Shown in pieces: positions 6,279-59,270 of a stretch of 64,000 nt of DNA. Both the position numbers and the translations under genes were made by a program. The first letter of the stretch is position 1, and the number at the start of each line of letters is the position of its first letter. The notes beneath the pieces are model-generated. The model did not search any database. It was not told where the DNA came from and was given only the letters and a program-made list of their open reading frames with translations. This DNA comes from Candidatus Porifericomitales bacterium (GTDB taxonomy: Bacteria; Pseudomonadota; Gammaproteobacteria; CBDEFV01), in contig CBDEFV010000003.1 in the NCBI GenBank assembly GCA_965237735.1, positions 157,169 through 221,168 on the forward strand. Direction: 5' to 3'.

Positions 6279-9200
6279 ATGATTGTATGGCATGAATATC
6301 TTGCATTCTGGCGAGTATCATTAAAAGGCAGTGCCTTCGCCCTGCTCTGCGCCCTGCCATGGGTCGGGCAGGCGGAGGATGCTGACCGCGATGGAGACGG
6401 GCTGATCGAAATCGACAATCTGACCATGCTGCACAACATGCGCCACGACCGGAGGGGCTGGAGCTACAAGACCAGTTGGGAGGATGGGGGAAACAGAGAC
6501 GGCTGTCCTCTTCATTCTTGGCTAGTCAACGATGACCACGAGCAGGGCTCGAAAGACACTGTACGGACCCAGCACAACAGATGCCACGGCTATGAGTTGA
6601 CCCGGGACCTGGACTTTGATGCCGATGGTGATGGAAGTACCTGGTCGCGCGACAGCAGCGGGAACTACAGTTTGGATGAGGATGACAGCGTGAGTCCTTA
6701 CTTTGTGGTGAGCAACGGTGCCGGCGGCTGGATTCCGATCGGTGGAAGTGAGGGCTTTCGGGCTGACTTTGAAGGCAACGGCTACACCATCAGCAACCTC
6801 GCCATTCGCAGAGGTGGTGGTAACCTTGTGGGGTTCTTCACCGTGACTGATAGAACAAACTACGATGCCGTCGTAGAATCCTCTAATAACAATATAACGA
6901 ACAGGCCTATCTACAGGGATGGGATCATCCGCAATATCGGTTTGATCAACAACCTGGCGGATTATACCGGCACCGACAATTATGTCGCTGTCGGCGGGCT
7001 GGTGGGGCGGCAGAACCGTAGTAGAATCATCGCCAGCTACGCCACGGGCCATGTCAATGGCGGGGGTTCCCGGGGCAACATTGTCGGCGGGCTGGTGGGA
7101 GGGCTGTGGAGCGGCGAAATCCACGCGAGCCACGCCAGGGGCGCTGTCACTGGCGGGAATGGAATCTCTAGCCGTGTCGGCGGGCTGGTGGGAGAGGTGA
7201 AAAGAGAGGGTGGAAGATCATCGCATATCCTGGCGAGCTACGCCAAAGGCAATGTCGATAGCGGGGGCCACTATAGTTGGGTCGGCGGGCTGGTGGGCTG
7301 GAATGAGGCCGGCTGGATCCGGTCGAGCTATGCCACCGGCCGTGTCACTAGCGGGGACGGAGTTTATAGCCATAACCAGGCCGGCGGGCTGGTGGGCCAC
7401 CAGGCTGGTGGCAAAATCTTTGCGAGCTATGCCACGGGCGATGTCGATGGCGGTGCCGGCGACGGTGATCATGCCGGTAGGCTGGTGGGCCGGAAGGCAG
7501 GCGGCTTGATCGAGCAGAGCTATGGCTTTGGCGGGCTCATGGGCGGGGAGTCCGCGGGGGTGGACGGCGATCCCCCCGTGTTCCATGCCGCCGACTTGAC
7601 CAGAGGCAATGTCGGATCCTCCTGGGATTCAGCCGACAGAGTAACCTTGGGCGCCTGGGATTTCGGCACCAATGAGCAGGTCCCGCTGCTGAACTATGCC
7701 GACTATGACGGCGGGAGTGGCTCCAACTACTGCAGCCAGTTCCCTTCCGGCAGCTGCGGCACCCTGTTGCCGGGCCAGGCGGGCGTGAGCGCCGGCGACT
7801 CTTTTTCAGTGCAGTTCGGCACCGTCGCTACCCTGAACGGTTCGCTTGCATCCGACCGCGGCGTCGAATTCCTCTCCTGGCATTGGCGGCAATTGCAGGG
7901 TCCCCCCGTCGACCTGAGGGGCGCCGACAGCCACGAACCAGTCTTCGTGGTGCCGGGTATCCCGGCCCCCCTGTTGTTCATGCTGACCGCCATCGATAGC
8001 GAAGGCTGGGTATACAGCGACCACGTCACCGTCCTCACTGTGCCTGAGGCCGTCGATGAGGATGGAGATGGCCTGATCGAGATTCACGACCTGACCATGC
8101 TGCACAACATGCGCTACGACCTGGCGGGCCTGAGCTACAGAACCAGTCCCGCCTCGGCCGGGGACAGCTCGGGCTGTCCCTTCTCGCGCTGCATCGGCTA
8201 TGAGTTGGTGCAGCCCCTTAACTTTGATACCGATGGTGACGGAACCTGGTCGGGCGACAGCAGTCAGGGGTACAGTTTGGATGAGGATGACAGCAGGGCG
8301 CCGTATTTTGTGGTGGATTCCGCTGCCGGCGGCTGGCAGCCGATCGGCGACGGAGCCCATCCTTTTATCGCCGTCTTTGAAGGCAACGGCCACAGTGTCG
8401 GCGACCTCGCCATCCGCCGCGATCAAGCCTCCGTCGGGCTCTTTGGCGTGATCGGAGAGGGTGCGGCCATCCGCAACTTCGGCCTGGTCGGCAACCTGGC
8501 GGATTATACCGGCTCCAGCAGTGGTAGGATTTACATTGGCGGCTTGGTGGGGCGGCAGAAGGGTGGTGCAATCAGCGCGGGCTACGCTACCGGCGTCGCC
8601 GATGGTGGCTCCGGCAGCGCTGATCGGGTCGGCGGGCTGGTGGGCTGGCAGGAAGGCGGCTTGATCCTGGCGAGCTATGCCAGGGGAGATGTCGATGGCG
8701 GAGGCGGTTGGTATGATCATGTCGGCGGGCTGGTGGGCCAGCAGGAGAACGGTTCGATCACGGCGAGTTACGCTACGGCAGCTGTCGCTGGCGGAAGCGG
8801 CGCCTATGATCGGACTGGCGGGCTGGTGGGAGAGCAGGACGGCGGCTCGATCACGGCGAGCTATGCCACGGGCGCTGCCGATGGTGGCCCCGGCAAGGGT
8901 GATTTTGTCGGCGGGCTGGTGGGCTGGCAGGACGGCGGCTCGATCGCGGCGGGCTATGCCACCGGCGATGTCGATGGCGGGGATGGATCTGGTGACTGGG
9001 TCGGCGGGCTGGTGGGACGGCGGACATCCGGCTCGATTAGGCAGAGCTATGGCTTTGGCGGGCTCATGGGCGGGGAGTCCGTGGGGGTGGATGGCGATCC
9101 CCCCGTGTCCAGAGCCGTCGACTTGACCGCAACCCATGCCGCATCCTCCTGGAATGCAGCCGCCAACAACACCTTGGGCGCCTGGGATTTCGGCAGCGAT

Positions 9201-38770: not shown

Positions 38771-39731
38771 CGGGCCCTGTCCAGGCGCATCTGCACCCGC
38801 TGGAACCAGATGATGGGCGCGAGCAGCAGCGTCAGCAGGATGACGGCCGCCGCCGAGGCCAGCGGCCAGTCGCGGTTGTTGAAGAACTCGGTCCACAGCA
38901 CCTTGCCGATCATGAGGGTGTCGGCGCCGCCGAGCAGATCGGGAATGACGAACTCGCCGACCGCCGGGATGAACACCAGCAGGCAGCCGGCGACGACCCC
39001 GGGCAGGGACAGCGGGAAGGTCACGCGCCAGAACACCTGGAAGCCGCGGGCGCCGAGATCGGCGGCGGCCTCGCTGAGGCTGTCGTCGAGCTTGATCAGG
39101 ATGGCATAGATCGGCAGCAGCATGAACGGCAGGTAGGAGTAGACGATGCCGAGGACGACGGCGATGTTGCTGTGGAGGATGTGCAGCGGCTCGCTGATGA
39201 TGCCGGGGCTGCTCAGCAGCAGGTTCAGCAGGCCCTCGTCCTTGAGGATGCCGATCCAGGCGTAGACGCGGATCAGGAAGGAGGTCCAGAACGGCAGAAT
39301 CACCATAATCAGCAGCCGCCCCTGCCACGCCGGCGAGGCCCGGGCCATGCCGTAGGCGATGGGGTAGGCGACGATCAGCGCCACCAGGGTCGAGAATGCA
39401 GCCAGGGAGACGCTGCTGATCCAGGCGAAGAAGTAGAGGTCGTCGCTGAAGAGCAGCAGATAGTTTTCCAGATTGAGGAACATCCGCAGCGCATAGCCTT
39501 CGGTCCCATCGGCGGCCAGGGTCCACAGGGGCGCGTAGGGGGGATGGAGATCTGCGTTTCCGAAAAACTCATCTTGAAGACGATGAGGAACGGAACCAGG
39601 AAGAAGATCAGCAGCCAGGTGTACGGCAGCGCCAGCACCAGGGCGCGGCTCAGGCGGCGCCAGCGCTCGATTGCATGGACCAGCCGCCGCAGCAGCGCCA
39701 GGGGGGAGAGGGACGGCGCCGGCATGTTCAC
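38767..39731 (-). pseudogene. potB: spermidine/putrescine ABC transporter permease PotB, frameshifted at a G6/C6 run (~39535..39543)
   Basis: MNMPAPSLSPLALLRR...FLVPFLIVFKMSFSETQISIPP switches frame to YAPLW...MFLNLENYLLLFSDDLYFFAWISS...EAAADLGARGFQVFWRVTFPLSLPGVVAG. Seven C residues in place of six would restore the frame. Confidence 0.7.
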
Positions 39732-39750
39732 AACTTCCCCCGACTGCGCC

Positions 39751-40233
39751 TCAGTGGGTCAGGACGAGGGCGCTGTCGATATGCCAGGAGGCGCAGACTT
39801 CGTCCTCCCAGGTCACGAGCTTTTTGGTTTCGCGGCGGCTGTTCATGGTGGCCACGGTCAGGGACACGGCCTTCTCCCCCTCGGGTCCCACCCGCAGGTG
39901 ATAGATCGACAGGTTGCCGAGATAGCCGATCTCCTCGACCCGCGCCCTGATGTGGTTCCACTCCTTGTCTTTCGGCGGCTCCTTGCTGATCTGGATCTTT
40001 TCCGGCCGCAGGGCGAGCCACACGGGGGCGTCGGCGACGACGCCGGTGACTTCGCGCGCCTTCAGGTCGGCTCCCAACTGCTCGCTGCGGACGCTGCCCT
40101 CGGCCTTCCAGTGTTCGGGCAGGATATTGATCTCGCCGATGAATTCAGCGACATGGCGGGACAGCGGATTTTCGTAGATCTCGGCCGGCGGGGCGTTCTG
40201 CTCGATATGGCCCTGTTTCATGACGGCGATGCG
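39751..40233 (-). pseudogene. potA: PotA ABC-transporter ATPase, C-terminal ~160 aa only. It is 5'-truncated at the boundary of the gene-2 leader element.
   Basis: ...[42 protein letters not shown]... covers the end of the ABC domain and the TOBE domain. Upstream of ~40233 the sequence becomes the conserved leader element; the Walker A/B region is absent. Confidence 0.65.
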
Positions 40234-40236
40234 GCT

Positions 40237-40496
40237 GGACCCATGGGCGTGGGCGCCGATTCTTCTTCTGCCTCCCCTGTTCGGCTTGCGGCGGCGGCGC
40301 TCGTCCGTTCGGCCCGCTGCGCTGCTGGAAATGGCGTCCTGGTCCCCGGGTTGCCGGCAGGTTTAAAACCTCAGGTTTTTTGTTTTTTTATACAGAAGAT
40401 CCACCCAAACAGCAAAACATGATGGTATACTTTAACTCCCTAAAGAAATATTTTTGGGTATATTTTCAGTTACCATTTTAATGTAGGTATTCTATT
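40237..40496 (+). promoter_or_regulatory. conserved giant-gene leader element, copy 3 (upstream of gene 2). Its 5' edge abuts truncated potA.
   Basis: Same conserved boxes. Homology to the other copies starts at ggacccatgggcg (~40237). Confidence 0.5.
40359..40389 (+). terminator. leader hairpin plus U-tract, copy upstream of gene 2
   Basis: Same motif as at 4838..4867. Confidence 0.3.
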
Positions 40497-46400: not shown

Positions 46401-49400
46401 GGCGGTTTGATCACGGCGAGCTATGCCACAGGCGCTGCCGATGGCGGGGTTGGCAACAGAGACTATGTCGGCAGGCTGCTCGGCTTTCAGGGAGAGGACT
46501 CGATGATCTGGCAGAGCTATGGCTTTGGCGGGCTCATGGGCGGAGATTTCACGGGGCCGGATGGCGCTCCCCCCGTGCCCCGTGCCACCGAATTGACCGC
46601 AACCCATGCCGGATCCTCCTGGAATGCAGCCGACAGCAACACCTTGGGCGCCTGGGATTTCGGCAGCGATGAGCAGATCCCGGTGCTGAACTATGCCGAC
46701 TATGACGGCGAGGGTGCGGCCTTCAACTGCAACCAGTTCCCTCCCGGTGCCTGCGGCACCTTTTTGCCGGGCCAGGTGCCGCCGGCGGCGCTGAAGGCAC
46801 TGGAATTGAGCGCCGGCGTTGTTTTGCATCCAGCCTTCACCCGGGCGACCCTGACTTATACCGCCTCGGTCGTCAACGACATCGAATTCATCACCATCGC
46901 AACAATGCCAGCCCATCTCAATGCCTTGGCTGAAATCACGCCGGCGGATGCCGACGGCACTGGAGACGGCCACCAGGTGAATCTCGCCGTGGGTGAAAAC
47001 TTCATCGCCATAGAGGTGACGGCGGCGGACGGCATGAATGTGCAGAGGTACACCCTGACGCTGACCCGCGCTCCCTCCACCGATGCGACCCTGGGTGCGC
47101 TGGAACTGAGCGGCGGCGTCGCTCTGCGGCCCATCTTTGCTGCGGCGGTGCGGAGCTACACGGCCTCGGTGGCCAACGACATCGCATCCATTACCCTCAC
47201 GGCAGTGCCGACCCATGCCCGTGCTTCGGTTGCGATCACGCCGGCAGATGCCGACCTCACGGCAGAGGGTTATCAGCTGGCTCTCAATATGGGTCCAAAC
47301 CTCATCGTCATAGAGGTGACGGCGGCGGACGGCATGAATGTGCAGAGGTACACCCTGACGCTGACCCGCGCTCCCTCCACCGATGCGACCCTGGGTGCGC
47401 TGGAACTGAGCGGCGGCGTCGCTCTGCGGCCCATCTTTGCTGCGGCGGTGCGGAGCTACACGGCCTCGGTGGCCAACGACATCGCATCCATTACCCTCAC
47501 GGCAGTGCCGACCCATGCCCGTGCTTCGGTTGCGATCACGCCGGCAGATGCCGACCTCACGGCAGAGGGTTATCAGCTGGCTCTCAATATGGGTCCAAAC
47601 CTCATCGTCATAGAGGTGACGGCGGAGGACGGCATGAATGTGCAGAGGTACACCCTGACTCTGACCCGCGCTCCCTCCACCGATGATGCGACCCTGGGTG
47701 CGCTGGAACTGAGCGGCGGCGTCGATCTGCGGCTGCGGCCCATCTTTGCTGCGGCGGTGCGGAGCTACACGGTCTCGGTGGCCAACGACATCGAAACGAT
47801 TACCCTCACGGCGGCGCCGACCCATGCCCGTGCTTCGGTTGCGATCACGCCGGCAGATGCCGACCTCACTGCAGAGGGTTATCAGCTGGCTCTCAATGAG
47901 GGTTCAAACCTCATCAGCATCACCATAGAGGTGACGGCGGCGGACGGAGATACGACGCAGCAATACACCCTGACCCTGATTCGCCGTGCCGCCGCTGATC
48001 GCGATGGCAATGGCCTGATTGAGATCGACAATCCGACCATGCTGCACAACATGCGCTACGACTTGGCGGGCAGAAGCTACAAAACCAGTCCCGTCTCGGT
48101 CGGGGACAGCAGTGGCTGTCCCGCCATGCGCTGCATCGGCTATGAGTTGGAGCAGGACTTGGACTTTGATACGGATGCTGATGGAACCTGGTCGGGCAAC
48201 AGCAGTGAGGGGTACAGTTTGGATGGGGATGACAGCATGGCGCCGTACTTTGTGGTGAATGGAGACGGCGAAGGCGGCTGGCAGCCGATTGGCGACGGTG
48301 CCAATCCCTTTGTCGCCGTCTTTGACGGCAACGGCCACAGCATCGGCAACCTCGCCGTCCGTCGCGCTCAAGCCTTCGTCGGGCTCTTTGGCGTGATCAG
48401 AGAGGGTGCGGCCATCCGCAATCTCGGCTTGGTTGACAGCCTGGCGGATTACACCGGCTCCAGCCTTGTTGAGACTTCCATTGGCGGCTTGGTGGGGTGG
48501 CAGAGGGGAGGTGCAATCAGCGCCAGCTACGCCACCGGCACCGCCAATGGCGGGAGCGGAAATCGTAATTATGTCGGCGGGCTGGTGGGCTGGCAGTGGA
48601 CTGGCTCGATCACGGCGAGCTACGCCACAGGCAATGTCGATGGCGGGGGCGGCAACTATGATAGGGTTGGCGGGCTGGTGGGCTTGCAGGGGGGCGGTTC
48701 AATCATCCTGAGCTATGCCAAGGGCGCTGCCGATGGCGGGAGCGGAGTTCGTGATCGGGTCGGCGGGCTGGTGGGCAGTCAGGGCAACGGCTCGATCACG
48801 GCGAGCTACGCCACCGGCGATGCCGCTGGCGGGGGCGGCAACACAGATTTTGTCGGCGGGCTGGTGGGCTATCAGGACTATGGTCCGATCACGGCGAGCT
48901 ACGCCACCGGCGATGCCGCTGGCGGGGGCGGCAACACAGATTTTGTCGGCGGGCTGGTGGGCAGGCAGTTTGATGGCTCGATCACGGCGAGCTATGCCAC
49001 GGGCGATGCCGATGGCGGCGATGGAAATATTGACGGTGTCGGCAGGCTGGTAGGCAATCAGCAGAACGGCTCGATCTGGCAGAGCTATGGCTTTGGCGGG
49101 CTCATGGGCGGGGATCCCTCGGGGGCGGATGGCGCTCCCCCCGTGTCCAGTGCCGCCGAATTGACCGCAACCCATGCCGGATCCTCTTGGAATGCAGCCG
49201 ACAGCAACACCTTGGGCGCCTGGAATTTTGGTGACAGCACCCAGGTTCCGGCGCTGAACTATGCCGACTATGATGGTCAGGGTATGACCTTCAGTTGCGG
49301 CCAGTTCCCTCCCGGTGTTTGCGACCCCGCCACCCTGTTGCCGGGCCAGGATGTCGTGAGCGCAGGCGACTCTTCTTTAGTGCCGTTCGGCGCCGCCGCC

Positions 49401-52400
49401 ACCCTGACCGGCTCGATCAGATTCGGCCGCGTTGCCATCAGCTCCTGGCATTGGCGGCAACTGCGGGGTCCCACCGTCACCCTGAGGGGCGCCGACCGCC
49501 GCGAAGCAACCTTCCTGGTACCGAATATCATGGCCACCCTGGTGTTCGGACTGACCGCTATCGATGACGAAGGCCAGCGATACAGCGACCGCGTCACCCT
49601 CCTCACTGTGGTTGATCCCGTCGATGAGGATGGAGATGGCCTGATCGAGATTCACGACTTGGCCATGCTGCACAACATGCGCTACGACCTGGCGGGCGGA
49701 AGCTACAAAACCAGTATCGCCTCGGTCGGGGACAGTTCGGGCTGTCCCGCCCTGCGCTGCATCGGCTATGAGTTGATGCAGCACCTGGACTTTGATACGG
49801 ATGATGATGGAACCTGGTCGGGCGACAGCAGTGAGGGGTACAGTTTGGATGGGGATGACAGCATGGCGCCGTACTTTGAGGTGAATGGAGACGGCGAAGG
49901 CGGCTGGCAGCCGATCGGCGACGAAGTAGAGCCTTTTACCGCCGTCTTTGACGGCAACGGCCACAGCATCGGCCACCTCGCCATCCGTCGCGATCAAGCC
50001 TTCGTCGGGCTCTTTGGCGTGATCGGAGAGGGTGCGGCCATCCGCAATCTCGGCCTGGTCGACAACTTGGCGGATTACACCGGCTCCAGCGGTGGTCGGA
50101 TTTCCATTGGCGGCTTGGTGGGGTGGCAGAAGAGAGGTGCAATCAGCACGAGCTACGCCAAGGGCACCGCCGCTGGCGGGCTTGGCAACGGTGATCGGGT
50201 CGGCGGGCTGGTGGGCTGGCAGGACGGCGGTTCAATCATCCTGAGCTATGCCACGGGCAATGCCGATGGCGGAGCCGGCGGCTATGATAATGTCGGCGGG
50301 CTGGTGGGCTGGCAGGACGGCGGTTCAATCACGGCGAGCTACGCCACGGGCAATGCCGATGGCGGAGCCGGCGACTATGATCGGGTCGGCGGGCTGGTGG
50401 GCTTGCAGAACGGCGGTTCAATCACGGCGAGCTATGCCACGGGCGCTGCCGATGGCGGGGTGGGCCACACAGACTATGTCGGCGGGCTGGTAGGACAGCA
50501 GAGAGTCAGCTCGATCATGCAGAGCTATGGCTTTGGCGGGCTCATGGGCGGGGAGTCCGCGGGGGCGGATGGCGCTCCCCCCGTGTCCAGTGCCGCCGAC
50601 TTGACCGCAACCCATGCCGGATCCTCCTGGAATGCAGCCGACAGCAACACCTTGGGCGCTTGGGATTTTGGTGACAGCACTCAGGTTCCGGTGCTGAACT
50701 ATGCCGACTATGATGGTCAGGGTATGACCTTCAGTTGCGGCCAGTTCCCTCCCGGTGTTTGCGACCCCGCCACCCTGTTGCCGGGCCAGGGGGGCCTGAG
50801 CGCAGGCGACTCTTCTACAGTGCTGTTCGGCACAACCGCCACCCTGACCGGCCTGATCAGATTAGGTCGCGTTGCCATCAGCTCCTGGCATTGGCGGCAA
50901 CTGCAGGGTCCCACCGTCACCCTGAGGGGCGCCGACAGCCGCGAAGCAACCTTCCTGGTACCGAATATCATGGCCACCCTGGTGTTCAGACTGACCGCTA
51001 TCGATGACGAAGGCCAAGAATACAGCGACCGCGTCACCCTCCTCACTGTGGCTGATATCGTCGATGAGGATGGAGATGGCCTGATCGAGATTCACGACTT
51101 GGCCATGCTGCACAACATGCGCTACGACCTGGCGGGCGGAAGCTACAAAACCAGTACCGCCTCGGTCGGGAACAGTTCGGGCTGTCCCGCCCTGCGCTGC
51201 ATCGGCTATGAGTTGGTGCAGCCCCTCGACTTTGATACGGATAATGATGGAACCTGGTCGGGTGGCAGCAGCGGGGGGTACAGCTTGGATAAGGATGACA
51301 GCATGGCGCCATACTTTGTGGTGGATTCCGCTGCCGGCGGCTGGCAGCCGATCGGCGACGAAGCAGAGCCTTTTGCCGCCGTCTTTGACGGCAACGGCCA
51401 CAGCATCGGCAACCTCGCCGTCCGTCGCAGTCAGACTGTCTACGTCGGGTTCTTCGGCGCGATAGGAGGGAGTGCGGTCATCCGCAACCTCGGCCTGGTC
51501 GACAACCTGGCGGATTACACCGGCTCCAGCGATAATAAGATTTCCATTGGCGGTTTGGTGGGGTTGCAGAGGGGAGGTGCAATCAGCACGAGCTACGCCA
51601 CCGGCGATGCCGATGGCGGGGGCGGCAGCCTTGATGAGGTTGGCGGGCTGGTGGGCAGGCAGTTTGATGGCTCGATCACGGCGAGCTATGCCACGGGCAA
51701 TGCCGATGGCGGGGGCGGCGGCTATGATAGGGTCGGCGGGCTGGTGGGCTTTCAGGAGGGCGGTTCAATCATCCAGAGCTATGCCATGGGCAATGCCGAT
51801 GGCGGCGGGGAGAGCACTCGGGTCGGCGGGCTGGTGGGCTTTCAGGAGGGCGGTTCAATCATCGTGAGCTTTGCCACGGGCAATGCCGCTGGCGGGAGCA
51901 GAGCTGGTGATCATGTCGGCGGGCTGGTGGGCCATCAGTTTGGTGGCTCGATCACGGCGAGCTATGCCACGGGCGATGCCACTGGCGGTCGCGGAAATCG
52001 TGATCGGGTCGGCGGGCTGGTGGGCTATCAGGTTCGTAGCGATGCATCAATCACGGCGAGCTATGCCACGGGCGATGCCGATGGCGGGGGCGGCAATGAA
52101 GACAATGCCGGCAGGCTGGTAGGCAATCAGCTGAACGGCTCGATCTGGCAGAGCTATGGCTTTGGCGGGCTCATGGGCGGAGATTTCACGGGGCCGGATG
52201 ACACTCCCCCCGTGTCCAGTGCCGCCGAATTGACCGCAACCCATGCCGGATCCTCCTGGAATGCAGCCGACAGCAACACCTTGGGCGCCTGGGATTTTGG
52301 TGACAGCACCCAGGTTCCGGCGCTGAGCTATGCCGACTATGATGGTAAGGGTACGACCTTCAGTTGCGGCCAGTTCCCTCCCGGTGTTTGCGACCCCGCC

Positions 52401-55400
52401 ACCCTGTTGCCGGGCCAGGATGACGTGAGCGCAGGCGACTCTTCTGCAGTGCTGTTCGGCGCCGTCGCCACCCTGACCGGCTCGATCAGATTCGGCCGCG
52501 TTGTCATCAGCTCTTGGCATTGGCGGCAACTGCGGGGTCCCACCGTCATCCTGGCGGGTGCCGGCAGCCGCGAAGCAACCTTCCTGGTACCGAATATCAT
52601 GGCCACCCTGGTGTTCAGACTGACCGCTATCGATGACGAAGGCCAAGAATACAGCGACCGCGTCACCCTCCTCACTGTGGCTGATATCGTCGATGAGGAT
52701 GGAGATGGCCTGATCGAGATTCATGACTTGGCCATGCTGCACAACATGCGCTACGACTTGGCGGGCGGAAGCTACAAAACCAGTATCGCCTCGGTCGGGG
52801 ACAGCTTGGGCTGTCCCGCCCGGGGCTGCATCGGCTATGAGTTGATGCGGGACCTGGACTTTGATAAGGATGATAATGGAACCTGGTCGGGCGACAGCAG
52901 TGAGGGGTACAGTTTGGATGGGGATGACAGCATGGCGCCATACTTTGTGGTGGATTCCGCTGCCGGCGGCTGGCAGCCGATTGGCGACCGTGCCAATCCC
53001 TTTGCCGCCGTCTTTGACGGCAACGGCCACAGCATCGGCAACCTCGCCGTCCGTCGCAGTCAGACTGCCTACGTCGGGCTCTTTGGCGTGATCGGAGAGG
53101 GTGCGGCCATCCGCAATCTCGGCCTGGTCGACAACCTGGCGGATTATACCGGCTCCAGCGGTGGTAGGATTTCCATTGGCGGCTTGGTGGGCTTGCAGGA
53201 AGGCGGCTCGATCGCGGCGAGCTACGCCACAGGCAATGTCGATGGCGGGAGCGGAAGTTATGATTATGTCGGCGGTTTGGTGGGGTTGCAGAGGGGAGGT
53301 GCAATCAGCACGAGCTACGCCACAGGCAATGTCGATGGCGGAGCCGGCAGCTTTGATGCGGTCGGCGGGCTGGTGGGCAGGCAGAACGGCGGTTCAATCA
53401 TCCTGAGCTATGCCACGGGCAATGCCGCTGGCGGGTACGGAAATAGGGATGAGGTCGGCGGGCTGGTGGGCTATCAGTTGGATGGCTCGATCACGGAGAG
53501 CTACGCCACCGGCGATGCCGCTGCCGGGGTTAGCAACAATGCTCGGATCGGCGGGCTGGTGGGCCGGCAGGCCGGCGGTTCAATCATCCTGAGCTATGCC
53601 ACGGGCGATGCCGATAGCGGGGGCGGAGTTGGGGTTCAGGTCGGCGGGCTGGTGGGCTTGCAGGAAGGCGGCTCGATCACGGCGAGCTATGCCACGGGCG
53701 ATGCCGATGGCGGGCGCGGCAACTCTGATTTTGTCGGCGGGCTGGTGGGCTATCAGTTTGATGGCTCGATCACGGCGAGCTATGCCACGGGCGATGCCGA
53801 TGGCGGGAGCGGAATTGAGGATCATGTCGGCGGGCTGGTGGGCTATCAGTTTGATGGCTCGATCACGGCGAGCTATGCCACGGGCGATGCCGATGGCGGG
53901 CGCGGCAACTCTGATTTTGTCGGCGGGCTGGTGGGCTATCAGTTTGATGGCTCGATCACGGCGAGCTATGCCACGGGCGATGCCGATGGCGGGCACGGCG
54001 ACTCTGATTTTGTCGGCGGGCTGGTGGGCTATCAGTGGGATCGCGACTCGATCTTGCAGAGCTATGGCTTTGGCGGGCTCATGGGCGGAGATTTCACGGG
54101 GTCGGATGGCACTCCCCCCGTGTCCAGTGCCGCCGAATTGACCGCAACCCATGCCGGATCCTCCTGGAATGCAGCCGACAGCAACACCTTGGGCGCCTGG
54201 GATTTTGGTGACAGCACCCAGGTTCCGGCGCTGAACTATGCCGACTATGATGGTCAGGGTATGACCTTCAGTTGCGGCCAGTTCCCTCCCGGTGTTTGCG
54301 ACCCCGCCACCCTGTTGCCGGGCCAGGCTGACGTGAGCGCAGGCGACTCTTCTGCAGTGCTGTTCGGCACAACCGCCATCCTGACCGGCTCGATCAGATT
54401 CGGCCGCGTTGCCATCAGCTCCTGGCATTGGCGGCAACTGCGGGGTCCCACCGTCACCCTGAGGGGCGCCGACAGCCGCGAAGCAACCTTTCTGGCGCCG
54501 GAGAGCCCGGCCACCCTGGTGTTCAGACTGACCGCTATCGATGGCGAAGGCCGAGAATACAGCGACCGCGTCACCTTTACTGTGGCTGATATCGTCGATG
54601 AGGATGGAGATGGCCTGATCGAGATTCACGACTTGGCCATGCTGCACAACATGCGCTACGACTTGGCGGGCGGAAGCTACAAAACCAGTACCGCCGCGGT
54701 CGGGTACATCGGGGGCTGTCCCGACCAGGGCTGCTTCGGCTATGAGTTGGTGCAGCCCCTCGACTTTGATACGGATGATGATGGAACCTGGTCGGGCGGC
54801 AGCAGTGAGGGGTACAGTTTGGATGGGGATGACAGCATGGCGCCGTACTTTGAGGTGAATGGAGACGGCGAAGGCGGCTGGCTACCGATCGGCGATAGCG
54901 TCGCTCCCTTTGTCGCTGTCTTTGAGGGCAACGGCCACAGCATCGGCAACCTCGCCATTCGCCGCGATCAAGCCTCCGTCGGGCTCTTTGGCGTGATCGG
55001 AGAGGGTGCGGCCATCCGCAATCTCGGCCTGGTCGACAACTTGGCGGATTACACCGGCTCCAGCGATAGTGGGATTTCCATTGGCGGCTTGGTGGGCTTG
55101 CAGGAAGGCGGCTTGATCACGGCGAGCTATGCCACGGGCGATGCCGATGGCGGGGGCGGCCACTTTGATGGGGTCGGCGGGCTGGTGGGCCGGCAGGACG
55201 GCGGTTCAATCATCCTGAGCTATGCCACGGGCAATGCCGATGGCGGGAGCGGAGTTGGGGATGAGGTCGGCGGGCTGGTGGGCTATCAGTTGGATGGCTC
55301 GATCACGGCGAGCTACGCCACCGGTGATGCCGATGGCGGGCTTGGCAACGATGATGGGGTCGGCGGGCTGGTGGGCTATCAGTTGGATGGCTCGATCACG

Positions 55401-58400
55401 GCGAGCTACGCCACCGGTGATGCCGATGGCGGGCTTGGCAACGATGATCGGGTCGGCGGGCTGGTGGGCTGGCAGGAAGGCGGTTTGATCACGGCGAGCT
55501 ATGCCACAGGCGCTGCCGATGGCGGGGTTGGCAACAGAGACTATGTCGGCAGGCTGCTCGGCTTTCAGGGAGAGGACTCGATGATCTGGCAGAGCTATGG
55601 CTTTGGCGGGCTCATGGGCGGAGATTTCACGGGGCCGGATGGCGCTCCCCCCGTGCCCCGTGCCACCGAATTGACCGCAACCCATGCCGGATCCTCCTGG
55701 AATGCAGCCGACAGCAACACCTTGGGCGCCTGGGATTTCGGCAGCGATGAGCAGATCCCGGTGCTGAACTATGCCGACTATGACGGCGAGGGTGCGGCCT
55801 TCAACTGCAACCAGTTCCCTCCCGGTGCCTGCGGCACCTTTTTGCCGGGCCAGGTGCCGCCGGCGGCGCTGAAGGCACTGGAATTGAGCGCCGGCGTTGT
55901 TTTGCATCCAGCCTTCACCCGGGCGACCCTGACTTATACCGCCTCGGTCGTCAACGACATCGAATTCATCACCATCGCAACAATGCCAGCCCATCTCAAT
56001 GCCTTGGCTGAAATCACGCCGGCGGATGCCGACGGCACTGGAGACGGCCACCAGGTGAATCTCGCCGTGGGTGAAAACTTCATCGCCATAGAGGTGACGG
56101 CGGCGGACGGCATGAATGTGCAGAGGTACACCCTGACGCTGACCCGCGCTCCCTCCACCGATGCGACCCTGGGTGCGCTGGAACTGAGCGGCGGCGTCGC
56201 TCTGCGGCCCATCTTTGCTGCGGCGGTGCGGAGCTACACGGCCTCGGTGGCCAACGACATCGCATCCATTACCCTCACGGCAGTGCCGACCCATGCCCGT
56301 GCTTCGGTTGCGATCACGCCGGCAGATGCCGACCTCACGGCAGAGGGTTATCAGCTGGCTCTCAATATGGGTCCAAACCTCATCGTCATAGAGGTGACGG
56401 CGGCGGACGGCATGAATGTGCAGAGGTACACCCTGACGCTGACCCGCGCTCCCTCCACCGATGCGACCCTGGGTGCGCTGGAACTGAGCGGCGGCGTCGC
56501 TCTGCGGCCCATCTTTGCTGCGGCGGTGCGGAGCTACACGGCCTCGGTGGCCAACGACATCGCATCCATTACCCTCACGGCAGTGCCGACCCATGCCCGT
56601 GCTTCGGTTGCGATCACGCCGGCAGATGCCGACCTCACGGCAGAGGGTTATCAGCTGGCTCTCAATATGGGTCCAAACCTCATCGTCATAGAGGTGACGG
56701 CGGAGGACGGCATGAATGTGCAGAGGTACACCCTGACTCTGACCCGCGCTCCCTCCACCGATGATGCGACCCTGGGTGCGCTGGAACTGAGCGGCGGCGT
56801 CGATCTGCGGCTGCGGCCCATCTTTGCTGCGGCGGTGCGGAGCTACACGGTCTCGGTGGCCAACGACATCGAAACGATTACCCTCACGGCGGCGCCGACC
56901 CATGCCCGTGCTTCGGTTGCGATCACGCCGGCAGATGCCGACCTCACTGCAGAGGGTTATCAGCTGGCTCTCAATGAGGGTTCAAACCTCATCACCATCA
57001 CCATAGAGGTGACGGCAGAGGACGGCATGAATGTGCAGACGTACATCCTGACTCTGACCCGTGCCCCCCCTTCCATCGATGCGACCCTGGATGCGTTGGA
57101 ACTGAGCGGCGTCGTCGCTCTGCGGCCCATCTTTGCTGCGGCGGTGCGGAGCTACACGGTCTCGGTGGCCAACGGCATCGAAACGATTACCCTCATGGTG
57201 GTGCCGACCCATGCCCGTGCTTCGGTTGCGATCACGCCGGCAGATGCCGACCTCACTGCAGAGGGTTATCAGCTGGCTCTCGATGTGGGTCCGAACCTCA
57301 TCACCATGGAGGTGACGGCAGAGGACGGCATGAATGTGCAGACGTACACCCTGACTCTGACCCGTGCCCCCCCTTCCATCGATGCGACCCTGGATGCGTT
57401 GGAACTGAGCGGCGGCGTCGCTCTGCGGCCCATCTTTGCTGCGGCGGTGCGGAGCTACACGGCCTCGGTGGCCAACGACATCGAAACCATTACCCTCACG
57501 GCAGTGCCGACCCATGCCCGTGCTTCGGTTGCGATCACGCCGGCAGATGCCGACCTCACTGCAGAGGGTTATCAGCTGGCTCTCAATGTGGGTTCAAACC
57601 TCATCACCATCACCATAGAGGTGACGGCGGCGGACGGAGACACGACGCAGCAATACACCCTGCTGACCCTGACCCTGATTCGCCGTGCCGCCGCTGATCG
57701 CGATGGCAATGGCCTGATTGAGATCGACAATCCGACCATGCTGCACAACATGCGCTACAACCTGGCAGGCACCAGCTACAAAACCACCGACACCAACTCG
57801 GCCGGCGACAGTTCAGGCTGTCCCGCTTCGGGCTGCTTCGGCTATGAGTTGGAGCAGGACCTGGACTTTGATACGGATGATGATGATGATGCAACCTGGT
57901 CGGGCAACAGCAGTGAGGGGTACAGTTTGGATAGGGATGACAGCATGGCGCCTTACTTTAAGGTGGATAGTGACAGCGCCGGTGGCTGGCAGCCCATTGG
58001 TGATAACAACAATCCCTTTGACACTGTTTTCGACGGCAACAGCCATACCATCAGCAATCTCGCCATCCGCCGTGCTCAAGCGACGATAGGGCTCTTTGGC
58101 GCGATAGGAGAGGGTGCGGCCATCCGCAATCTTGGCCTGGTCAACAACCTGGCGGACTATACGGGTTCTGACAACGGCGGCATTCGTATTGGCGGCTTGG
58201 TGGGACTTCAGGACGGTGGTATGATCACGACGAGCTACACCACGGGCAATGCCGATGGCGGGAATGGCGACGCTGCTCAGGTCGGCGGGCTGGTGGGCGC
58301 TCAGTTCAGTGGCTCAATCACCGCAAGCTATGCCAAGGGCGATGTCGCTGGCGGGGACGGGGAAGGGGAAGGTGCTCAGGTCGGCGGGCTGGTGGGCTTT

Positions 58401-59270
58401 CAGGAGGGCGGTTCGATCAGGACGAGCTACGCCGAGGGCGAAGTCGCGGGTGGAGACGGCGACGATGTGGTCGGCGGGCTGGTAGGTGTCCAGTCCGGCA
58501 CGATCAGGGCGAGCTACGCCGCGGGCGATGCCAGCGGCGGCGCCGGCGATGATGTGGTCGGTGCGCTGGTGGGCGAGATGACCGGCGGGCACGGCACGGG
58601 TTCAATCGTCGCCAGCTACGCCACGGGCGATGCCGATGGCGGCGGGGGCGACAATGATCTCGTCGGCACCTTGGTGGGCAAACGGGTGGGCGCCGGGCGG
58701 ATAACGGAATCGATCACCGCGAGCTACAGCTTTGGCCAGGGAATCAACGGCAACGGGGAGGGGTCCCCCGGGTCGGCGGGCACGCCCTGGCCTGAGGGGG
58801 TGGATCAGGCGACTGATCTGAGCGCAGAAAATGCTGGACCAAGCTGGCTGAACGGGGATTGGGATTTCGCTACCGGCGATCAACCCCCAGCGGTGCAATA
58901 CAACAACAGGCTCATACCGGGCCAAAGGAGCGAGGAAGGGGGCGGTGACTCCGGCGGCGATGTCTCTGGCGGCAATGGTTCCGGCGGCGGTTCTCTGAGC
59001 CCTTGGGCGCTGTTGGCCTGGGTGCTGCTGCTGACCGGCGCGGCATGCGGGCGGCGGCTGACCCGGAGCGGCAGGGCGACGGCAGCGACGGCAGCTGCTC
59101 CCCCTGCCGTCCGGCCTGCCGCTTCCAATTCCGCCCGGTCGGCGGGGCGGGCCGGCGGATTTTGTGGCGGCGGCGTCAAGGGCCAGGCCGCGGGTTCTCG
59201 GGATTTGACGGCGGCCCTCGGCCCCTCCCTCTTCGGCTGGGACAGAGCGCCGCGGCGCCCCTTCGGCTGA
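40497..59270 (+). CDS. giant secreted repeat protein, gene 2 (6257 aa). It has 10 dockerin-like/GLUG units and two cadherin-like repeat arrays, and ends in a C-terminal anchor/sorting-like tail.
   Basis: GTG 40497 aligns with the start of gene 1 (MVVWHE versus MIVWHE). An alternative ATG 40605 (MKRSQSRASVRSTAFRALGLAALLLSCLALPWVVQA) gives a classical Sec signal peptide. Unit architecture matches gene 1. The C-terminus reads GGGSLSPWALLAWVLLLTGAACGRRLTRSGR... The ORF is intact. Confidence 0.88.
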   Translation: MVVWHERDSILARVIKRQCLRPALGHTDASPPHSARMKRSQSRASVRSTAFRALGLAALLLSCLALPWVVQAQGSVMADRDGDGLIEIDNLTMLHNMRYDLAGGSYKTSTASVGDSSGCPALRCIGYELAQPLDFDTDDDGTWSGDSSQGYSLDENDSMAPYFVVDSAAGGWQPIGDRANPFAAVFDGNGHSIGNLAIRRAQAFVGLFGVIGEGAAIRNLGLVGNLADYTGFSDGEIYIGGLVGLQRGGAISTSYATGDADGGSGARDHVGGLVGQQENGSITASYATGAADGGAGDFDQVGGLVGWQGGGSIILSYARGAADGGGGDGDRVGGLVGRQDGGSIILSYARGDVDGGSGLYDRVGGLVGYQFNGSITASYATGDADGGIGDDDRVGGLVGRQDGGSITASYATGDADGGSGNEDNAGRLVGNQQNGSIWQSYGFGGLMGGDFTGPDGTPPVSSAAELTATHAGSSWNAADSNTLGAWDFGDSTQVPALNYADYDGQGMTFSCGQFPPGVCDPATLLPGQGDLSAGDSSTVLFGAAATLTGSIRFGRVAISSWHWRQLRGPTVTLRGADSREATFLVPNIMATLVFGLTAIDGEGQEYSDRVTLLTVADIVDEDGDGLIEIHDLAMLHNMRYDLAGGSYKTSTASVGDSSGCPALRCIGYELAQPLDFDTDDDGTWSGNSSQGYSLDENDSMAPYFEVNGDGEGGWQPIGDEADPFAAVFDGNGHSIGNLAIRRDQSHIGLFGAMGEGAAIRNLGLVGNLADYTGSSNGEISIGGLVGRQISSSITASYATGDAAGGSGSGDHVGGLVGWQGGGSITASYARGDADGGGGYFNQIGGLVGTQFSGSITASYAMGNAAGGSGSGDQVGGLVGWQGGGSIILSYARGAADGGGGDRDRVGGLVGRQDGGSIILSYAMGNAAGGSGPKDQVGGLVGYQFNGSITASYARGDAAGGSGDSDFVGGLVGLRSRRSSITASYARGDADGGVGNTDYVGRLIGLQGDGSMIWQSYGFGGLMGGDFTGPDGTPPVSSAAELTATHAGSSWNAADSNTLGAWNFGDSTQVPALNYADYDGRGMTFSCGQFPPGVCDPTTLLPGQGDLSAGDFSVVSFGAVATLTGSIRFSRVAISSWHWRQLRGPTVTLRGADSREATFLAPESPATLVFGLTAIDDEGQRYSDRVTLLAVADIVDEDEDGLIEIHDLAMLHNMRYDLAGGSYKTSTASVGNSSGCPALRCIGYELAQPLDFDTDDDGTWSGDSSGGYSLDENDSMAPYFVVDSAAGGWQPIGDRANPFAAVFDGNGHSIGNLAIRRDQAWVGLFGVIGGRAAIRNLGLVDNLADYTGSSDRNIYIGGLVGLQRGGAISTSYARGDAAGGSGARDHVGGLVGLQDGGSITASYATGDAAGGIGDVDFVGGLVGLQDGGSITASYARGDADGGVGDYDFVGGLVGFQEGGSIILSYARGDADGGSGIEDQVGGLVGRQEGGLITASYATGDADGGHGDSDFVGGLVGYQWDRDSILQSYGFGGLMGGDFTGSDGTPPVSSAAELTATHAGSSWNAADSNTLGAWDFGDSTQVPALNYADYDGQGMTFSCGQFPPGVCDPATLLPGQADVSAGDSSAVLFGTTAILTGSIRFGRVAISSWHWRQLRGPTVTLRGADSREATFLAPESPATLVFRLTAIDGEGREYSDRVTFTVADIVDEDGDGLIEIHDLAMLHNMRYDLAGGSYKTSTAAVGYIGGCPDQGCFGYELVQPLDFDTDDDGTWSGGSSEGYSLDGDDSMAPYFEVNGDGEGGWLPIGDGVAPFVAVFEGNGHSIGNLAIRRDQSHIGLFGAMGEGAAIRNLGLVDNLADYTGSSDDQIFIGGLVGRQISSSITASYATGDAAGGSGGLDFVGGLVGVQFRRGSIILSYATGAADGGGGDDDRVGGLVGYQLDGSITASYATGDADGGLGNDDRVGGLVGWQEGGLITASYATGAADGGVGNRDYVGRLLGFQGEDSMIWQSYGFGGLMGGDFTGPDGAPPVPRATELTATHAGSSWNAADSNTLGAWDFGSDEQIPVLNYADYDGEGAAFNCNQFPPGACGTFLPGQVPPAALKALELSAGVVLHPAFTRATLTYTASVVNDIEFITIATMPAHLNALAEITPADADGTGDGHQVNLAVGENFIAIEVTAADGMNVQRYTLTLTRAPSTDATLGALELSGGVALRPIFAAAVRSYTASVANDIASITLTAVPTHARASVAITPADADLTAEGYQLALNMGPNLIVIEVTAADGMNVQRYTLTLTRAPSTDATLGALELSGGVALRPIFAAAVRSYTASVANDIASITLTAVPTHARASVAITPADADLTAEGYQLALNMGPNLIVIEVTAEDGMNVQRYTLTLTRAPSTDDATLGALELSGGVDLRLRPIFAAAVRSYTVSVANDIETITLTAAPTHARASVAITPADADLTAEGYQLALNEGSNLISITIEVTAADGDTTQQYTLTLIRRAAADRDGNGLIEIDNPTMLHNMRYDLAGRSYKTSPVSVGDSSGCPAMRCIGYELEQDLDFDTDADGTWSGNSSEGYSLDGDDSMAPYFVVNGDGEGGWQPIGDGANPFVAVFDGNGHSIGNLAVRRAQAFVGLFGVIREGAAIRNLGLVDSLADYTGSSLVETSIGGLVGWQRGGAISASYATGTANGGSGNRNYVGGLVGWQWTGSITASYATGNVDGGGGNYDRVGGLVGLQGGGSIILSYAKGAADGGSGVRDRVGGLVGSQGNGSITASYATGDAAGGGGNTDFVGGLVGYQDYGPITASYATGDAAGGGGNTDFVGGLVGRQFDGSITASYATGDADGGDGNIDGVGRLVGNQQNGSIWQSYGFGGLMGGDPSGADGAPPVSSAAELTATHAGSSWNAADSNTLGAWNFGDSTQVPALNYADYDGQGMTFSCGQFPPGVCDPATLLPGQDVVSAGDSSLVPFGAAATLTGSIRFGRVAISSWHWRQLRGPTVTLRGADRREATFLVPNIMATLVFGLTAIDDEGQRYSDRVTLLTVVDPVDEDGDGLIEIHDLAMLHNMRYDLAGGSYKTSIASVGDSSGCPALRCIGYELMQHLDFDTDDDGTWSGDSSEGYSLDGDDSMAPYFEVNGDGEGGWQPIGDEVEPFTAVFDGNGHSIGHLAIRRDQAFVGLFGVIGEGAAIRNLGLVDNLADYTGSSGGRISIGGLVGWQKRGAISTSYAKGTAAGGLGNGDRVGGLVGWQDGGSIILSYATGNADGGAGGYDNVGGLVGWQDGGSITASYATGNADGGAGDYDRVGGLVGLQNGGSITASYATGAADGGVGHTDYVGGLVGQQRVSSIMQSYGFGGLMGGESAGADGAPPVSSAADLTATHAGSSWNAADSNTLGAWDFGDSTQVPVLNYADYDGQGMTFSCGQFPPGVCDPATLLPGQGGLSAGDSSTVLFGTTATLTGLIRLGRVAISSWHWRQLQGPTVTLRGADSREATFLVPNIMATLVFRLTAIDDEGQEYSDRVTLLTVADIVDEDGDGLIEIHDLAMLHNMRYDLAGGSYKTSTASVGNSSGCPALRCIGYELVQPLDFDTDNDGTWSGGSSGGYSLDKDDSMAPYFVVDSAAGGWQPIGDEAEPFAAVFDGNGHSIGNLAVRRSQTVYVGFFGAIGGSAVIRNLGLVDNLADYTGSSDNKISIGGLVGLQRGGAISTSYATGDADGGGGSLDEVGGLVGRQFDGSITASYATGNADGGGGGYDRVGGLVGFQEGGSIIQSYAMGNADGGGESTRVGGLVGFQEGGSIIVSFATGNAAGGSRAGDHVGGLVGHQFGGSITASYATGDATGGRGNRDRVGGLVGYQVRSDASITASYATGDADGGGGNEDNAGRLVGNQLNGSIWQSYGFGGLMGGDFTGPDDTPPVSSAAELTATHAGSSWNAADSNTLGAWDFGDSTQVPALSYADYDGKGTTFSCGQFPPGVCDPATLLPGQDDVSAGDSSAVLFGAVATLTGSIRFGRVVISSWHWRQLRGPTVILAGAGSREATFLVPNIMATLVFRLTAIDDEGQEYSDRVTLLTVADIVDEDGDGLIEIHDLAMLHNMRYDLAGGSYKTSIASVGDSLGCPARGCIGYELMRDLDFDKDDNGTWSGDSSEGYSLDGDDSMAPYFVVDSAAGGWQPIGDRANPFAAVFDGNGHSIGNLAVRRSQTAYVGLFGVIGEGAAIRNLGLVDNLADYTGSSGGRISIGGLVGLQEGGSIAASYATGNVDGGSGSYDYVGGLVGLQRGGAISTSYATGNVDGGAGSFDAVGGLVGRQNGGSIILSYATGNAAGGYGNRDEVGGLVGYQLDGSITESYATGDAAAGVSNNARIGGLVGRQAGGSIILSYATGDADSGGGVGVQVGGLVGLQEGGSITASYATGDADGGRGNSDFVGGLVGYQFDGSITASYATGDADGGSGIEDHVGGLVGYQFDGSITASYATGDADGGRGNSDFVGGLVGYQFDGSITASYATGDADGGHGDSDFVGGLVGYQWDRDSILQSYGFGGLMGGDFTGSDGTPPVSSAAELTATHAGSSWNAADSNTLGAWDFGDSTQVPALNYADYDGQGMTFSCGQFPPGVCDPATLLPGQADVSAGDSSAVLFGTTAILTGSIRFGRVAISSWHWRQLRGPTVTLRGADSREATFLAPESPATLVFRLTAIDGEGREYSDRVTFTVADIVDEDGDGLIEIHDLAMLHNMRYDLAGGSYKTSTAAVGYIGGCPDQGCFGYELVQPLDFDTDDDGTWSGGSSEGYSLDGDDSMAPYFEVNGDGEGGWLPIGDSVAPFVAVFEGNGHSIGNLAIRRDQASVGLFGVIGEGAAIRNLGLVDNLADYTGSSDSGISIGGLVGLQEGGLITASYATGDADGGGGHFDGVGGLVGRQDGGSIILSYATGNADGGSGVGDEVGGLVGYQLDGSITASYATGDADGGLGNDDGVGGLVGYQLDGSITASYATGDADGGLGNDDRVGGLVGWQEGGLITASYATGAADGGVGNRDYVGRLLGFQGEDSMIWQSYGFGGLMGGDFTGPDGAPPVPRATELTATHAGSSWNAADSNTLGAWDFGSDEQIPVLNYADYDGEGAAFNCNQFPPGACGTFLPGQVPPAALKALELSAGVVLHPAFTRATLTYTASVVNDIEFITIATMPAHLNALAEITPADADGTGDGHQVNLAVGENFIAIEVTAADGMNVQRYTLTLTRAPSTDATLGALELSGGVALRPIFAAAVRSYTASVANDIASITLTAVPTHARASVAITPADADLTAEGYQLALNMGPNLIVIEVTAADGMNVQRYTLTLTRAPSTDATLGALELSGGVALRPIFAAAVRSYTASVANDIASITLTAVPTHARASVAITPADADLTAEGYQLALNMGPNLIVIEVTAEDGMNVQRYTLTLTRAPSTDDATLGALELSGGVDLRLRPIFAAAVRSYTVSVANDIETITLTAAPTHARASVAITPADADLTAEGYQLALNEGSNLITITIEVTAEDGMNVQTYILTLTRAPPSIDATLDALELSGVVALRPIFAAAVRSYTVSVANGIETITLMVVPTHARASVAITPADADLTAEGYQLALDVGPNLITMEVTAEDGMNVQTYTLTLTRAPPSIDATLDALELSGGVALRPIFAAAVRSYTASVANDIETITLTAVPTHARASVAITPADADLTAEGYQLALNVGSNLITITIEVTAADGDTTQQYTLLTLTLIRRAAADRDGNGLIEIDNPTMLHNMRYNLAGTSYKTTDTNSAGDSSGCPASGCFGYELEQDLDFDTDDDDDATWSGNSSEGYSLDRDDSMAPYFKVDSDSAGGWQPIGDNNNPFDTVFDGNSHTISNLAIRRAQATIGLFGAIGEGAAIRNLGLVNNLADYTGSDNGGIRIGGLVGLQDGGMITTSYTTGNADGGNGDAAQVGGLVGAQFSGSITASYAKGDVAGGDGEGEGAQVGGLVGFQEGGSIRTSYAEGEVAGGDGDDVVGGLVGVQSGTIRASYAAGDASGGAGDDVVGALVGEMTGGHGTGSIVASYATGDADGGGGDNDLVGTLVGKRVGAGRITESITASYSFGQGINGNGEGSPGSAGTPWPEGVDQATDLSAENAGPSWLNGDWDFATGDQPPAVQYNNRLIPGQRSEEGGGDSGGDVSGGNGSGGGSLSPWALLAWVLLLTGAACGRRLTRSGRATAATAAAPPAVRPAASNSARSAGRAGGFCGGGVKGQAAGSRDLTAALGPSLFGWDRAPRRPFG
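46777..47990 (+). repeat. about 4 cadherin-like 300-bp tandem repeats in gene 2 (array 1)
   Basis: Same repeat as in gene 1, with near-identical nucleotides. Confidence 0.8.
55853..57690 (+). repeat. about 6 cadherin-like 300-bp tandem repeats in gene 2 (array 2)
   Basis: Same repeat. Its first ~1.2 kb is identical to array 1. Confidence 0.8.

Follow-up and report, generated by a model that had tools for sequence, protein, structure and literature searches.

The giant adhesins of type I secretion systems (T1SS), among them SiiE, LapA and MpIBP/RTX (PMC6272769, PMC5550230, PMC7493085), are acidic, reach the megadalton range, carry a shaft of tandem beta-sandwich domains with Ca2+-dependent stiffening of the junctions, and serve attachment to a host or another surface. 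The GLUG beta-helix is known from the M26 IgA1 metalloproteases (S. pneumoniae; G. haemolysans IgA1P, PDB 7uvk/7jgj) and from BACOVA_03286 (PDB 3n6z), and GLUG proteins have been considered as possible adhesins of a gut archaeon (PMC9723798). In sponge symbionts, proteins with eukaryote-like domains (cadherin, fibronectin) occur in unrelated phyla with a proposed role in host attachment, and cadherin-domain genes are reported to be enriched in, and laterally transferred between, the metagenome-assembled genomes (MAGs) from sponges (PMC8163846). Here we analysed a stretch of 64,000 nucleotides from Candidatus Porifericomitales bacterium (Gammaproteobacteria; assembly GCA_965237735.1, contig CBDEFV010000003.1, positions 157,169 to 221,168), referred to as the window, in whose positions all coordinates are given. 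Two tandem genes on its plus strand, A and B, hold between them 27 copies of one module of about 550 residues, with up to 17 copies per protein once gene A is repaired. We consider it on balance probable that the locus encodes paralogous megadalton surface fibres which are C-terminally anchored, adhesive and possibly Ca2+-stabilised. As a system they are not of a new kind: the giant proteins represent a distinctive variant, so far undescribed, of the giant surface proteins of bacteria.

With the T1SS adhesins the window proteins have in common the size range, the acidity and beta-sandwich domains in tandem, and we propose the principle of Ca2+-dependent junction stiffening for them too. However, the T1SS adhesins use a C-terminal RTX/T1SS signal and an N-terminal retention module, whereas the window proteins have a Sec-type leader, as judged below, and a C-terminal hydrophobic anchor; moreover, the repeat unit is a single Ig-like domain in the former and a 550-aa beta-helix supermodule in the latter. 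No RTX family was among the Pfam hits of A and B, and no T1SS gene lies nearby in the window. The helices of IgA1P and BACOVA_03286 are the closest to the one described here, but the window proteins are without a protease domain, contain the helix 10-17 times per protein and not once, furnish it with its own putative EF-hand-type N-cap and a PKD domain after it, and belong to a probably marine Gram-negative host. The Pfam hits included no peptidase family (ZmpA scored 10.3 bits against a cut-off of 3000), and caps, GLUG rungs, PKD domains, cadherin-like repeats, spacer and anchor fill the whole length of the proteins. The eukaryote-like-domain proteins of sponge symbionts share cadherin-like and animal-type PKD domains with the window proteins; the study that counted these domains (PMC8163846) does not describe a beta-helix supermodule or megadalton multi-module genes. 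The parts of the giant genes are as follows.

6279 to 35285, plus strand: gene A, open reading frame (ORF) as assembled, 9,668 aa; predicted signal peptide, 15 units of beta-helix plus PKD, a 16th beta-helix without PKD and the first 9.5 cadherin-like repeats
6279 to 6374, plus strand: signal-peptide-like N-terminus of A, MIVWHEYLAFWRVSLKGSAFALLCALPWVGQA, judged by sequence only
6384 to 30986, plus strand: fifteen complete modules of A, each with an N-cap bearing a putative EF-hand-type loop, 4-10 GLUG rungs, a C-cap (SYGFG...WDFG..VP.LNYADYDG) and a K319L-type PKD domain
6384 to 8054, plus strand: unit 1 of A, the most divergent module (~60% identity), with two insertions of ~21 aa and a G+C content of 0.60 against 0.65
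30987 to 32345, plus strand: module 16 of A, beta-helix with both caps and no PKD, abutting the cadherin-like array
32346 to 35950, plus strand: cadherin-like array of A, 12 beta-sandwich repeats with a period of 300-303 bp and 95% matches; frameshift in the 10th
35166 to 35185, plus strand: 4-nt deletion splitting gene A, GCCG missing between ~35176 and 35177, in the 10th cadherin-like repeat
35255 to 37726, plus strand: ORF A2, continuation of gene A in a different frame, 823 aa; last 2.5 cadherin-like repeats, terminal beta-helix (35951-37327), Gly/Ser spacer, anchor and tail
37445 to 37516, plus strand: putative C-terminal anchor of A, GSLSPWALLAWVLLLTGAACGRRL, then the predicted tail to the stop
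40497 to 59270, plus strand: gene B, 6,257 aa counted from GTG; predicted signal peptide, 3 units of beta-helix plus PKD, a beta-helix, 4 cadherin-like repeats (46782-47996), 4 units of beta-helix plus PKD, a beta-helix, 6 cadherin-like repeats (55860-57695), terminal beta-helix (57696-58925), spacer, anchor and tail
40605 to 40712, plus strand: signal peptide of B, MKRSQSRASVRSTAFRALGLAALLLSCLALPWVVQA, judged likewise
58989 to 59060, plus strand: putative C-terminal anchor of B, same sequence as that of A
63147 to 64000, plus strand: third giant gene, start only; matches the start of A and is cut at the window end

ORFs A and A2 are one gene, because the cadherin-like repeat runs on in a new frame past the 4-nt deletion: the affected repeat reads GACACCC where all sister repeats read GACGCCGACCC, and downstream of it the repeat, the final module and the C-terminal end are intact. 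The repaired gene A encodes ~10,483 aa (~1,057 kDa). If the deletion is real and not an assembly error, protein A would be released instead of tethered. The leader region of gene B has ~100 extra nucleotides, and the true start of this gene is likely the ATG at 40605; counted from this Met37, protein B has 6,221 aa (~629 kDa). Both proteins are acidic (isoelectric point ~4.1-4.2, 11.7% Asp plus Glu) and contain 18% Gly. Since 4483-7132 matches 61351-64000, the third gene opens exactly like A. A preliminary description of the window had claimed ~50 kb coding for two giant proteins and the start of a third, which the ORFs bear out; of its sizes of ~10.5 and 6.3 thousand aa the latter agrees with B, while the former holds for A only after repair of the frameshift.

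Domains were mapped with hidden Markov models (HMMs) made from the window's own sub-alignments, and the resulting map covers the full length of A, A2 and B. In the repaired A the order is leader, fifteen times N-cap, GLUG rungs, C-cap and PKD, a helix without PKD, 12 cadherin-like repeats, the terminal helix, a Gly/Ser spacer, a hydrophobic helix with RR, and the tail. Counting D.[DN]G[DN]GLIEI together with its bare LIEI core gives 16 copies of the motif in A, one in A2 and 10 in B, the same 27 as in the preliminary description; a further copy lies in the third gene, all copies are in coding frames, and the opposite strand of the window has none. Where no cadherin array comes after it, the module measures 472-662 aa. 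Its copies are 60-74% identical as proteins (10 units aligned) and 80-95% identical in DNA to the nearest paralogue. All three domain families scored far above their Pfam gathering scores: GLUG (PF07581) with 162.7 bits and E 2.5e-49 on residues 1-1700 of A (gathering score 20.5; 5/5 scanned segments matched), the K319L-like PKD domain (PF22352) with 105 bits and E 2.2e-30 (27 bits; present in 22 of the 27 modules), and Cadherin-like (PF12733) with 432 bits and E 2.3e-132 (24.2 bits; 22 copies in three arrays). Tandem Repeats Finder located 93-bp (31-aa) GLUG rungs in almost every unit as well as 300-bp arrays at 32553-35901, 46990-47947 and 56013-57637. The fold of the PKD domain was matched to 2yrl both by Foldseek (E 3.5e-4, TMt 0.76) and by a PDB profile search (5.2e-5), and the beta-helix of the module is right-handed, as in 3n6z and the N-terminal domain of IgA1P. 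Ten aligned units share four invariant cysteines in two CxxxxC-type pairs, as would suit an oxidising environment outside the cytoplasm. Thus the periodic supermodule with its GLUG beta-helix, as proposed earlier, is confirmed by Pfam, by our own map and by the fold, and the Ig-like module turned out to be the K319L-type PKD domain; the rungs are present as claimed but number 4-10 per unit and not 5-8, and the cadherin-like arrays are real but consist of 12, 4 and 6 repeats in place of the 4-12 given before.

An AlphaFold2 model of unit 9 of A, built with an alignment of 40 rows taken from window units and from homologues in databases, reached a pLDDT of 87.3 and a pTM of 0.81 and has the following layout.

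residues 1-12, acidic loop; 8-10, short strand; 13-21, cap helix
residues ~92-375, beta-helix rungs; 376-456, C-cap region including a low-confidence, Cys-containing loop; 458-542, beta-sandwich

The acidic loop had been described as dockerin-like, a label that has to be dropped: with isolated cap peptides Dockerin_1 (PF00404) gave no match even at E<=10, a regular expression for the dockerin repeat gave 0 matches, and each module has a single loop-plus-helix, as opposed to the duplicated 22-residue Ca-loop-plus-helix segment of dockerin type I. A dockerin- or cohesin-type assembly was rejected, being supported by neither HMM nor pattern. Because the loop leads straight into the N-terminal strand and helix of the beta-helix, it is part of the helix domain and not a separate module. 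A regular expression for the PROSITE-type 12-residue EF-hand loop (DxDxDG..I...D/E) fitted 19 of the 27 caps, and 26 of the 27 if Asn was allowed at position 12, against 0.15 expected from shuffles; moreover, in the alignment of 40 family members the loop residues reach at least 90% conservation. In the model, which begins at the loop, the short strand and then the helix follow it directly, with neither an entering helix nor a paired partner. We read the motif as a predicted single EF-hand-type 12-residue loop that starts the beta-helix cap, and Ca2+ binding by this loop is plausible for a protein that would be bathed in seawater.

At their N-termini A and B have leaders which look like Sec-type signal peptides, and that of A is kept in the homologues P0015, P0021 and P0034 (e.g. 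RWRVLLKFGAFVLLCSLPWTAQA). Both proteins end in ..SGGGSLSPWALLAWVLLLTGAACGRRL, that is, a Gly-rich spacer, a hydrophobic helix and RR, and then ~70 Ala/Arg/Pro-rich residues of predicted tail; the anchor region of B is 99% identical in DNA to that of A (58957-59347 versus 37413-37803). An N-terminal export signal and a C-terminal hydrophobic anchor had both been postulated, and the leaders, that of A conserved in homologues, and the shared C-terminal ends speak for them. Compared with the GlyGly-CTERM/rhombosortase and MYXO-CTERM signals (TIGR03501, TIGR03901), the anchor peptide of the window stays below the cut-off of GlyGly-CTERM (14.2 bits, E 0.058, against 15.5) and does not lie at the very C-terminus. 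An NCBIfam scan of the C-terminal 270-290 aa found no match, and isolated peptides gave sub-threshold sorting-signal matches only. Known substrates of the GlyGly-CTERM/MYXO-CTERM type are far smaller than the window proteins. Relatives score 13.1 on GlyGly-CTERM; P0381 of a syntenic relative, which ends GGGGGSLGPWALAALMLPLLLGRRRRRR, reaches 22.4 bits on MYXO-CTERM against a 20-bit cut-off, and GGG, a hydrophobic stretch and RR also close the sequence of other family members, in some cases as its very last residues. The 64-kb window contains no gene for a rhombosortase or another sorting enzyme. We call the C-terminal segment a putative sorting-signal-like anchor, with no one class assigned.

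The module is not confined to this locus. A profile of the 27 N-caps, searched against 1.84 billion proteins (cluster representatives), matched 26,255 representatives at E<=0.001 and 1,285 at E<=1e-30, and the best 150 matches were mostly proteins of 2-7.8 thousand aa with 2-18 caps. Many of the homologous 'proteins' of at most 950 aa (among P0001-P0120) end in out-of-frame GLUG translations (..RRFDHGQLRHR..); these are fragments of longer genes that frameshifts in the source assemblies have broken, so that their lengths are uninformative on gene size. Cap peptide patterns were also searched in 185,579 GTDB species-representative genomes, one per species, which yielded 161 confirmed relatives, all in MAGs and for the most part in lineages of sponge symbionts belonging to several phyla; they come from spirochaetes, Ca. 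Porisulfidus, Oxydemutatoraceae, many Dehalococcoidia, Latescibacterota, Gemmatimonadaceae and others; Ca. Porisulfidus and Oxydemutatoraceae are sponge-symbiont groups of Gammaproteobacteria (PMC12988363, PMC11685487). Several of these phyla hold multi-cap ORFs of 3-7 thousand aa, and the G+C content of the family genes, 34% to 72%, tracks that of the host genome. The literature on GLUG and sponge, the GLUG motif, and giant adhesins of sponge symbionts contained no description of the module family that we could find. The earlier statement that the architecture cannot be assigned to a described family is accordingly right in that no paper or named family was found, but the individual parts are all known to Pfam as families, and as a whole the proteins fall into a large family, as yet without a name, that public metagenome data already contain. 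A and B are among its largest members.

The immediate surroundings of the giant genes consist of ilvIHC, relics of a pot operon and a mutase fragment. The minus strand carries ilvC, ilvH and ilvI at 473-3794, and IlvC of the window is 93% identical to IlvC of a 2.29-Mb ENA metagenome contig and at most 72% identical to all others, the named matches being Chromatiales- and Ectothiorhodospira-like Gammaproteobacteria. On this related contig the divergent neighbour of ilvI-H-C is a giant gene with GLUG and PKD domains (at least 2,982 aa); DNA identity to the window is ~88% in the ilv genes and 65-75% in the giant gene, and a second locus on the contig has tandem genes of 5,807, 716 and 6,206 aa. 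Since the relative keeps a giant gene beside ilvIHC, the locus is real and orthologous. The closest public homologue of gene B, P0247, is 77-85% identical at both ends and has 2,226 aa. The number of modules at the locus changes quickly, and the ratio of nonsynonymous to synonymous substitution rates (dN/dS) among paralogous modules is 0.5-0.8, indicating that the modules are constrained but fast-evolving. In one metagenome (ENA ERZ25072076), the variant contigs L079 and L078 carry the ilvIHC locus with different giant-gene fragments, called as 2,982 aa and 943 aa and both cut at the locus end, which suggests strain-level gene variation within one sample.

The DNA around the genes holds the following remnants.

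4984 to 6240, plus strand: decayed giant-gene relics upstream of A, comprising a C-cap, a tail, a degenerate N-cap 'NGNGLIEST' and GLUG rungs (5748-5978); duplicated together with the start of A at 61351-64000
59340 to 60170, plus strand: relics downstream of B, comprising a frameshifted C-cap, spacer, anchor and tail

Frameshifted relics on both flanks of the giant genes point to repeated recombination and decay at the locus. By blastn, 4483-7132 and 61351-64000 form a repeat of at least 2.65 kb with 99.9% identity, exact over almost its whole length, with the copies 56,868 bp apart. It takes in the upstream DNA with its relics as well as the opening 850 bp of gene A, and it reaches the window end; either a segment of the giant-gene locus was duplicated very recently, or the assembly is at fault here. 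Two ORFs of 418 aa, identical to each other and located at 4984 and 61852, had raised the suspicion of flanking insertion sequence elements, which we rejected: the ORFs are giant-gene relics in the 2.65-kb duplication, with no transposase family.

Directly upstream of each giant gene, twice for A, stands an element of ~270 bp (40250-40499, 84-93% identical to 4719-4986 and 5934-6193), whose end, ahead of the start codon, is rich in A+T. A promoter or leader common to the genes is a possible function of it; an Rfam search of the window, this element included, detected no RNA element. Between A and B, 38005-40221 on the minus strand contains a decayed polyamine-type ABC transporter operon, with only the TOBE domain of a PotA-like protein and no ATPase part (39751-40221), one permease (38767-39483) and a second permease frameshifted near 38490; the upstream sequence of gene B seems to have taken the place of the 5' part of potA. 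At 60629-61530, within a minus-strand ORF (60434-61660), there are five tandem 183-bp units with 94% matches, and one further copy at 4483-4662. Translated, the units correspond to an internal part of methylmalonyl-CoA mutase (NCBIfam PRK09426, four stretches), and the array is thus a piece of a gene that has been amplified in tandem.

How would such proteins work? In the scheme that we propose, the N-terminal signal peptide would direct export through Sec, and the sorting-signal-like segment, with its Gly-rich spacer, hydrophobic helix and RR, would tether the protein to the cell, so that the N-terminus would point outwards. The shaft would consist of rigid modules in series, each a short GLUG-type right-handed beta-helix plus a PKD beta-sandwich, with the cadherin-like arrays as additional spacers; by an estimate from the domain counts the fibre would be ~0.1-0.2 um long. 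The EF-hand-type loop at each helix cap may bind Ca2+ of the seawater and stiffen the junction from PKD to helix. The divergent first module of A, a candidate specialised tip, would sit at the end of the fibre, and together with many similar but non-identical helix faces it could provide multivalent binding to ligands of the host matrix or of other cells. Adhesion to sponge matrix or cells is what we infer from the domain types and the habitat of the relatives. That the proteins are, in general terms, a surface fibre or adhesin, as already put forward in the preliminary description, finds support in the domains, the leaders and the anchor. A bolder and more doubtful proposal, which we offer tentatively, is that the EF-hand-capped GLUG-helix module marks a family of megadalton fibres specific to symbionts of animals, namely sponges, spread over at least five phyla and subject to rapid expansion and contraction, which would be a shared symbiosis factor for host-matrix attachment or escape from phagocytosis and would, in its Gram-negative members, use an undescribed export route for giant proteins with a C-terminal anchor.

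Several points weigh against anchored, adhesive fibres. The anchor peptide of the window is under every curated sorting-signal cut-off, and the ~70 residues which come after its RR mean that it is not at the protein end. Gene A as assembled is frameshifted and would lose the anchor. No secretion or sortase-like gene lies within the 64-kb window, and to our knowledge there is no established system for bringing a C-terminally anchored protein of 0.6-1 MDa across the Gram-negative outer membrane. Ca2+ binding by the cap loop is a prediction from sequence, and the EF-hand HMMs stayed below threshold (EF-hand_1 13.6 bits against 25.4; EF-hand_7 17.2 against 30). The host organism is probably a marine-sponge symbiont, a habitat assigned through its relatives only. 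Finally, neither experiments nor expression data were found for any family member.

Of the alternatives, the one that survives best, although we hold it to be unlikely, is that the proteins are not adhesins but make up a coat that protects or camouflages the cell (S-layer-like, glycocalyx-like), or else a decoy that is released, with eukaryote-like PKD and cadherin-like folds blocking recognition or phagocytosis by the sponge. The PKD domains belong to the type of animal KIAA0319L/AAVR, the family occurs in many unrelated lineages of sponge symbionts, where eukaryote-like gene motifs have been tied to maintaining the host association (PMC8163846), and protein A as assembled, having no anchor, would be released; the anchor is, however, intact in B, and in A if repaired. 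Each locus encodes one or a few giant filaments, unlike the subunits of S-layers. Known S-layers are built of small, abundant, self-assembling subunits. Nothing in the sequence separates a coat from adhesion.

It is quite improbable, in our judgement, that the extreme sizes are partly a product of artefact or decay, with repeat-driven misassembly or pseudogenisation inflating or breaking smaller genes such as those of relatives with 2-3 thousand aa. The frameshift in A, the 2.65-kb repeat reaching the window end, cadherin-like arrays that are 92-95% self-identical, giant-gene relics throughout the intergenic DNA and the mere 2,226 aa of P0247, the protein closest to gene B, speak for this view. 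On the other hand, the modules differ from one another by 5-20% in DNA and can be resolved by accurate long reads, frames that stay open for 29 kb and 18.8 kb in DNA of 65% G+C cannot be due to chance, dN/dS is below 1, and independent assemblies have members of 4-7.8 thousand aa with up to 18 modules. We likewise give little credence to the view that the modules are enzymes, namely pectate-lyase-fold polysaccharide lyases or hydrolases, displayed or released, that would degrade sponge glycosaminoglycans or other matrix glycans.

If the reading as anchored surface fibres is true, a small-genome symbiont devotes at least 50 kb to proteins of ~1 MDa whose brick is a beta-helix supermodule and not a single Ig-like domain. 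Lineages that share this brick are Gammaproteobacteria, Chloroflexota, Spirochaetota, Latescibacterota, Gemmatimonadota and further ones represented by MAGs, the majority being typical of sponge microbiomes. Because the module has only ~550 aa and a high predicted fold confidence, it is tractable for Ca2+ binding, structure determination and ligand screens. The family would pose the question of how a C-terminally anchored megadalton protein is exported in a diderm cell, and would offer research on sponge-microbe associations a concrete and easily recognised candidate attachment factor.

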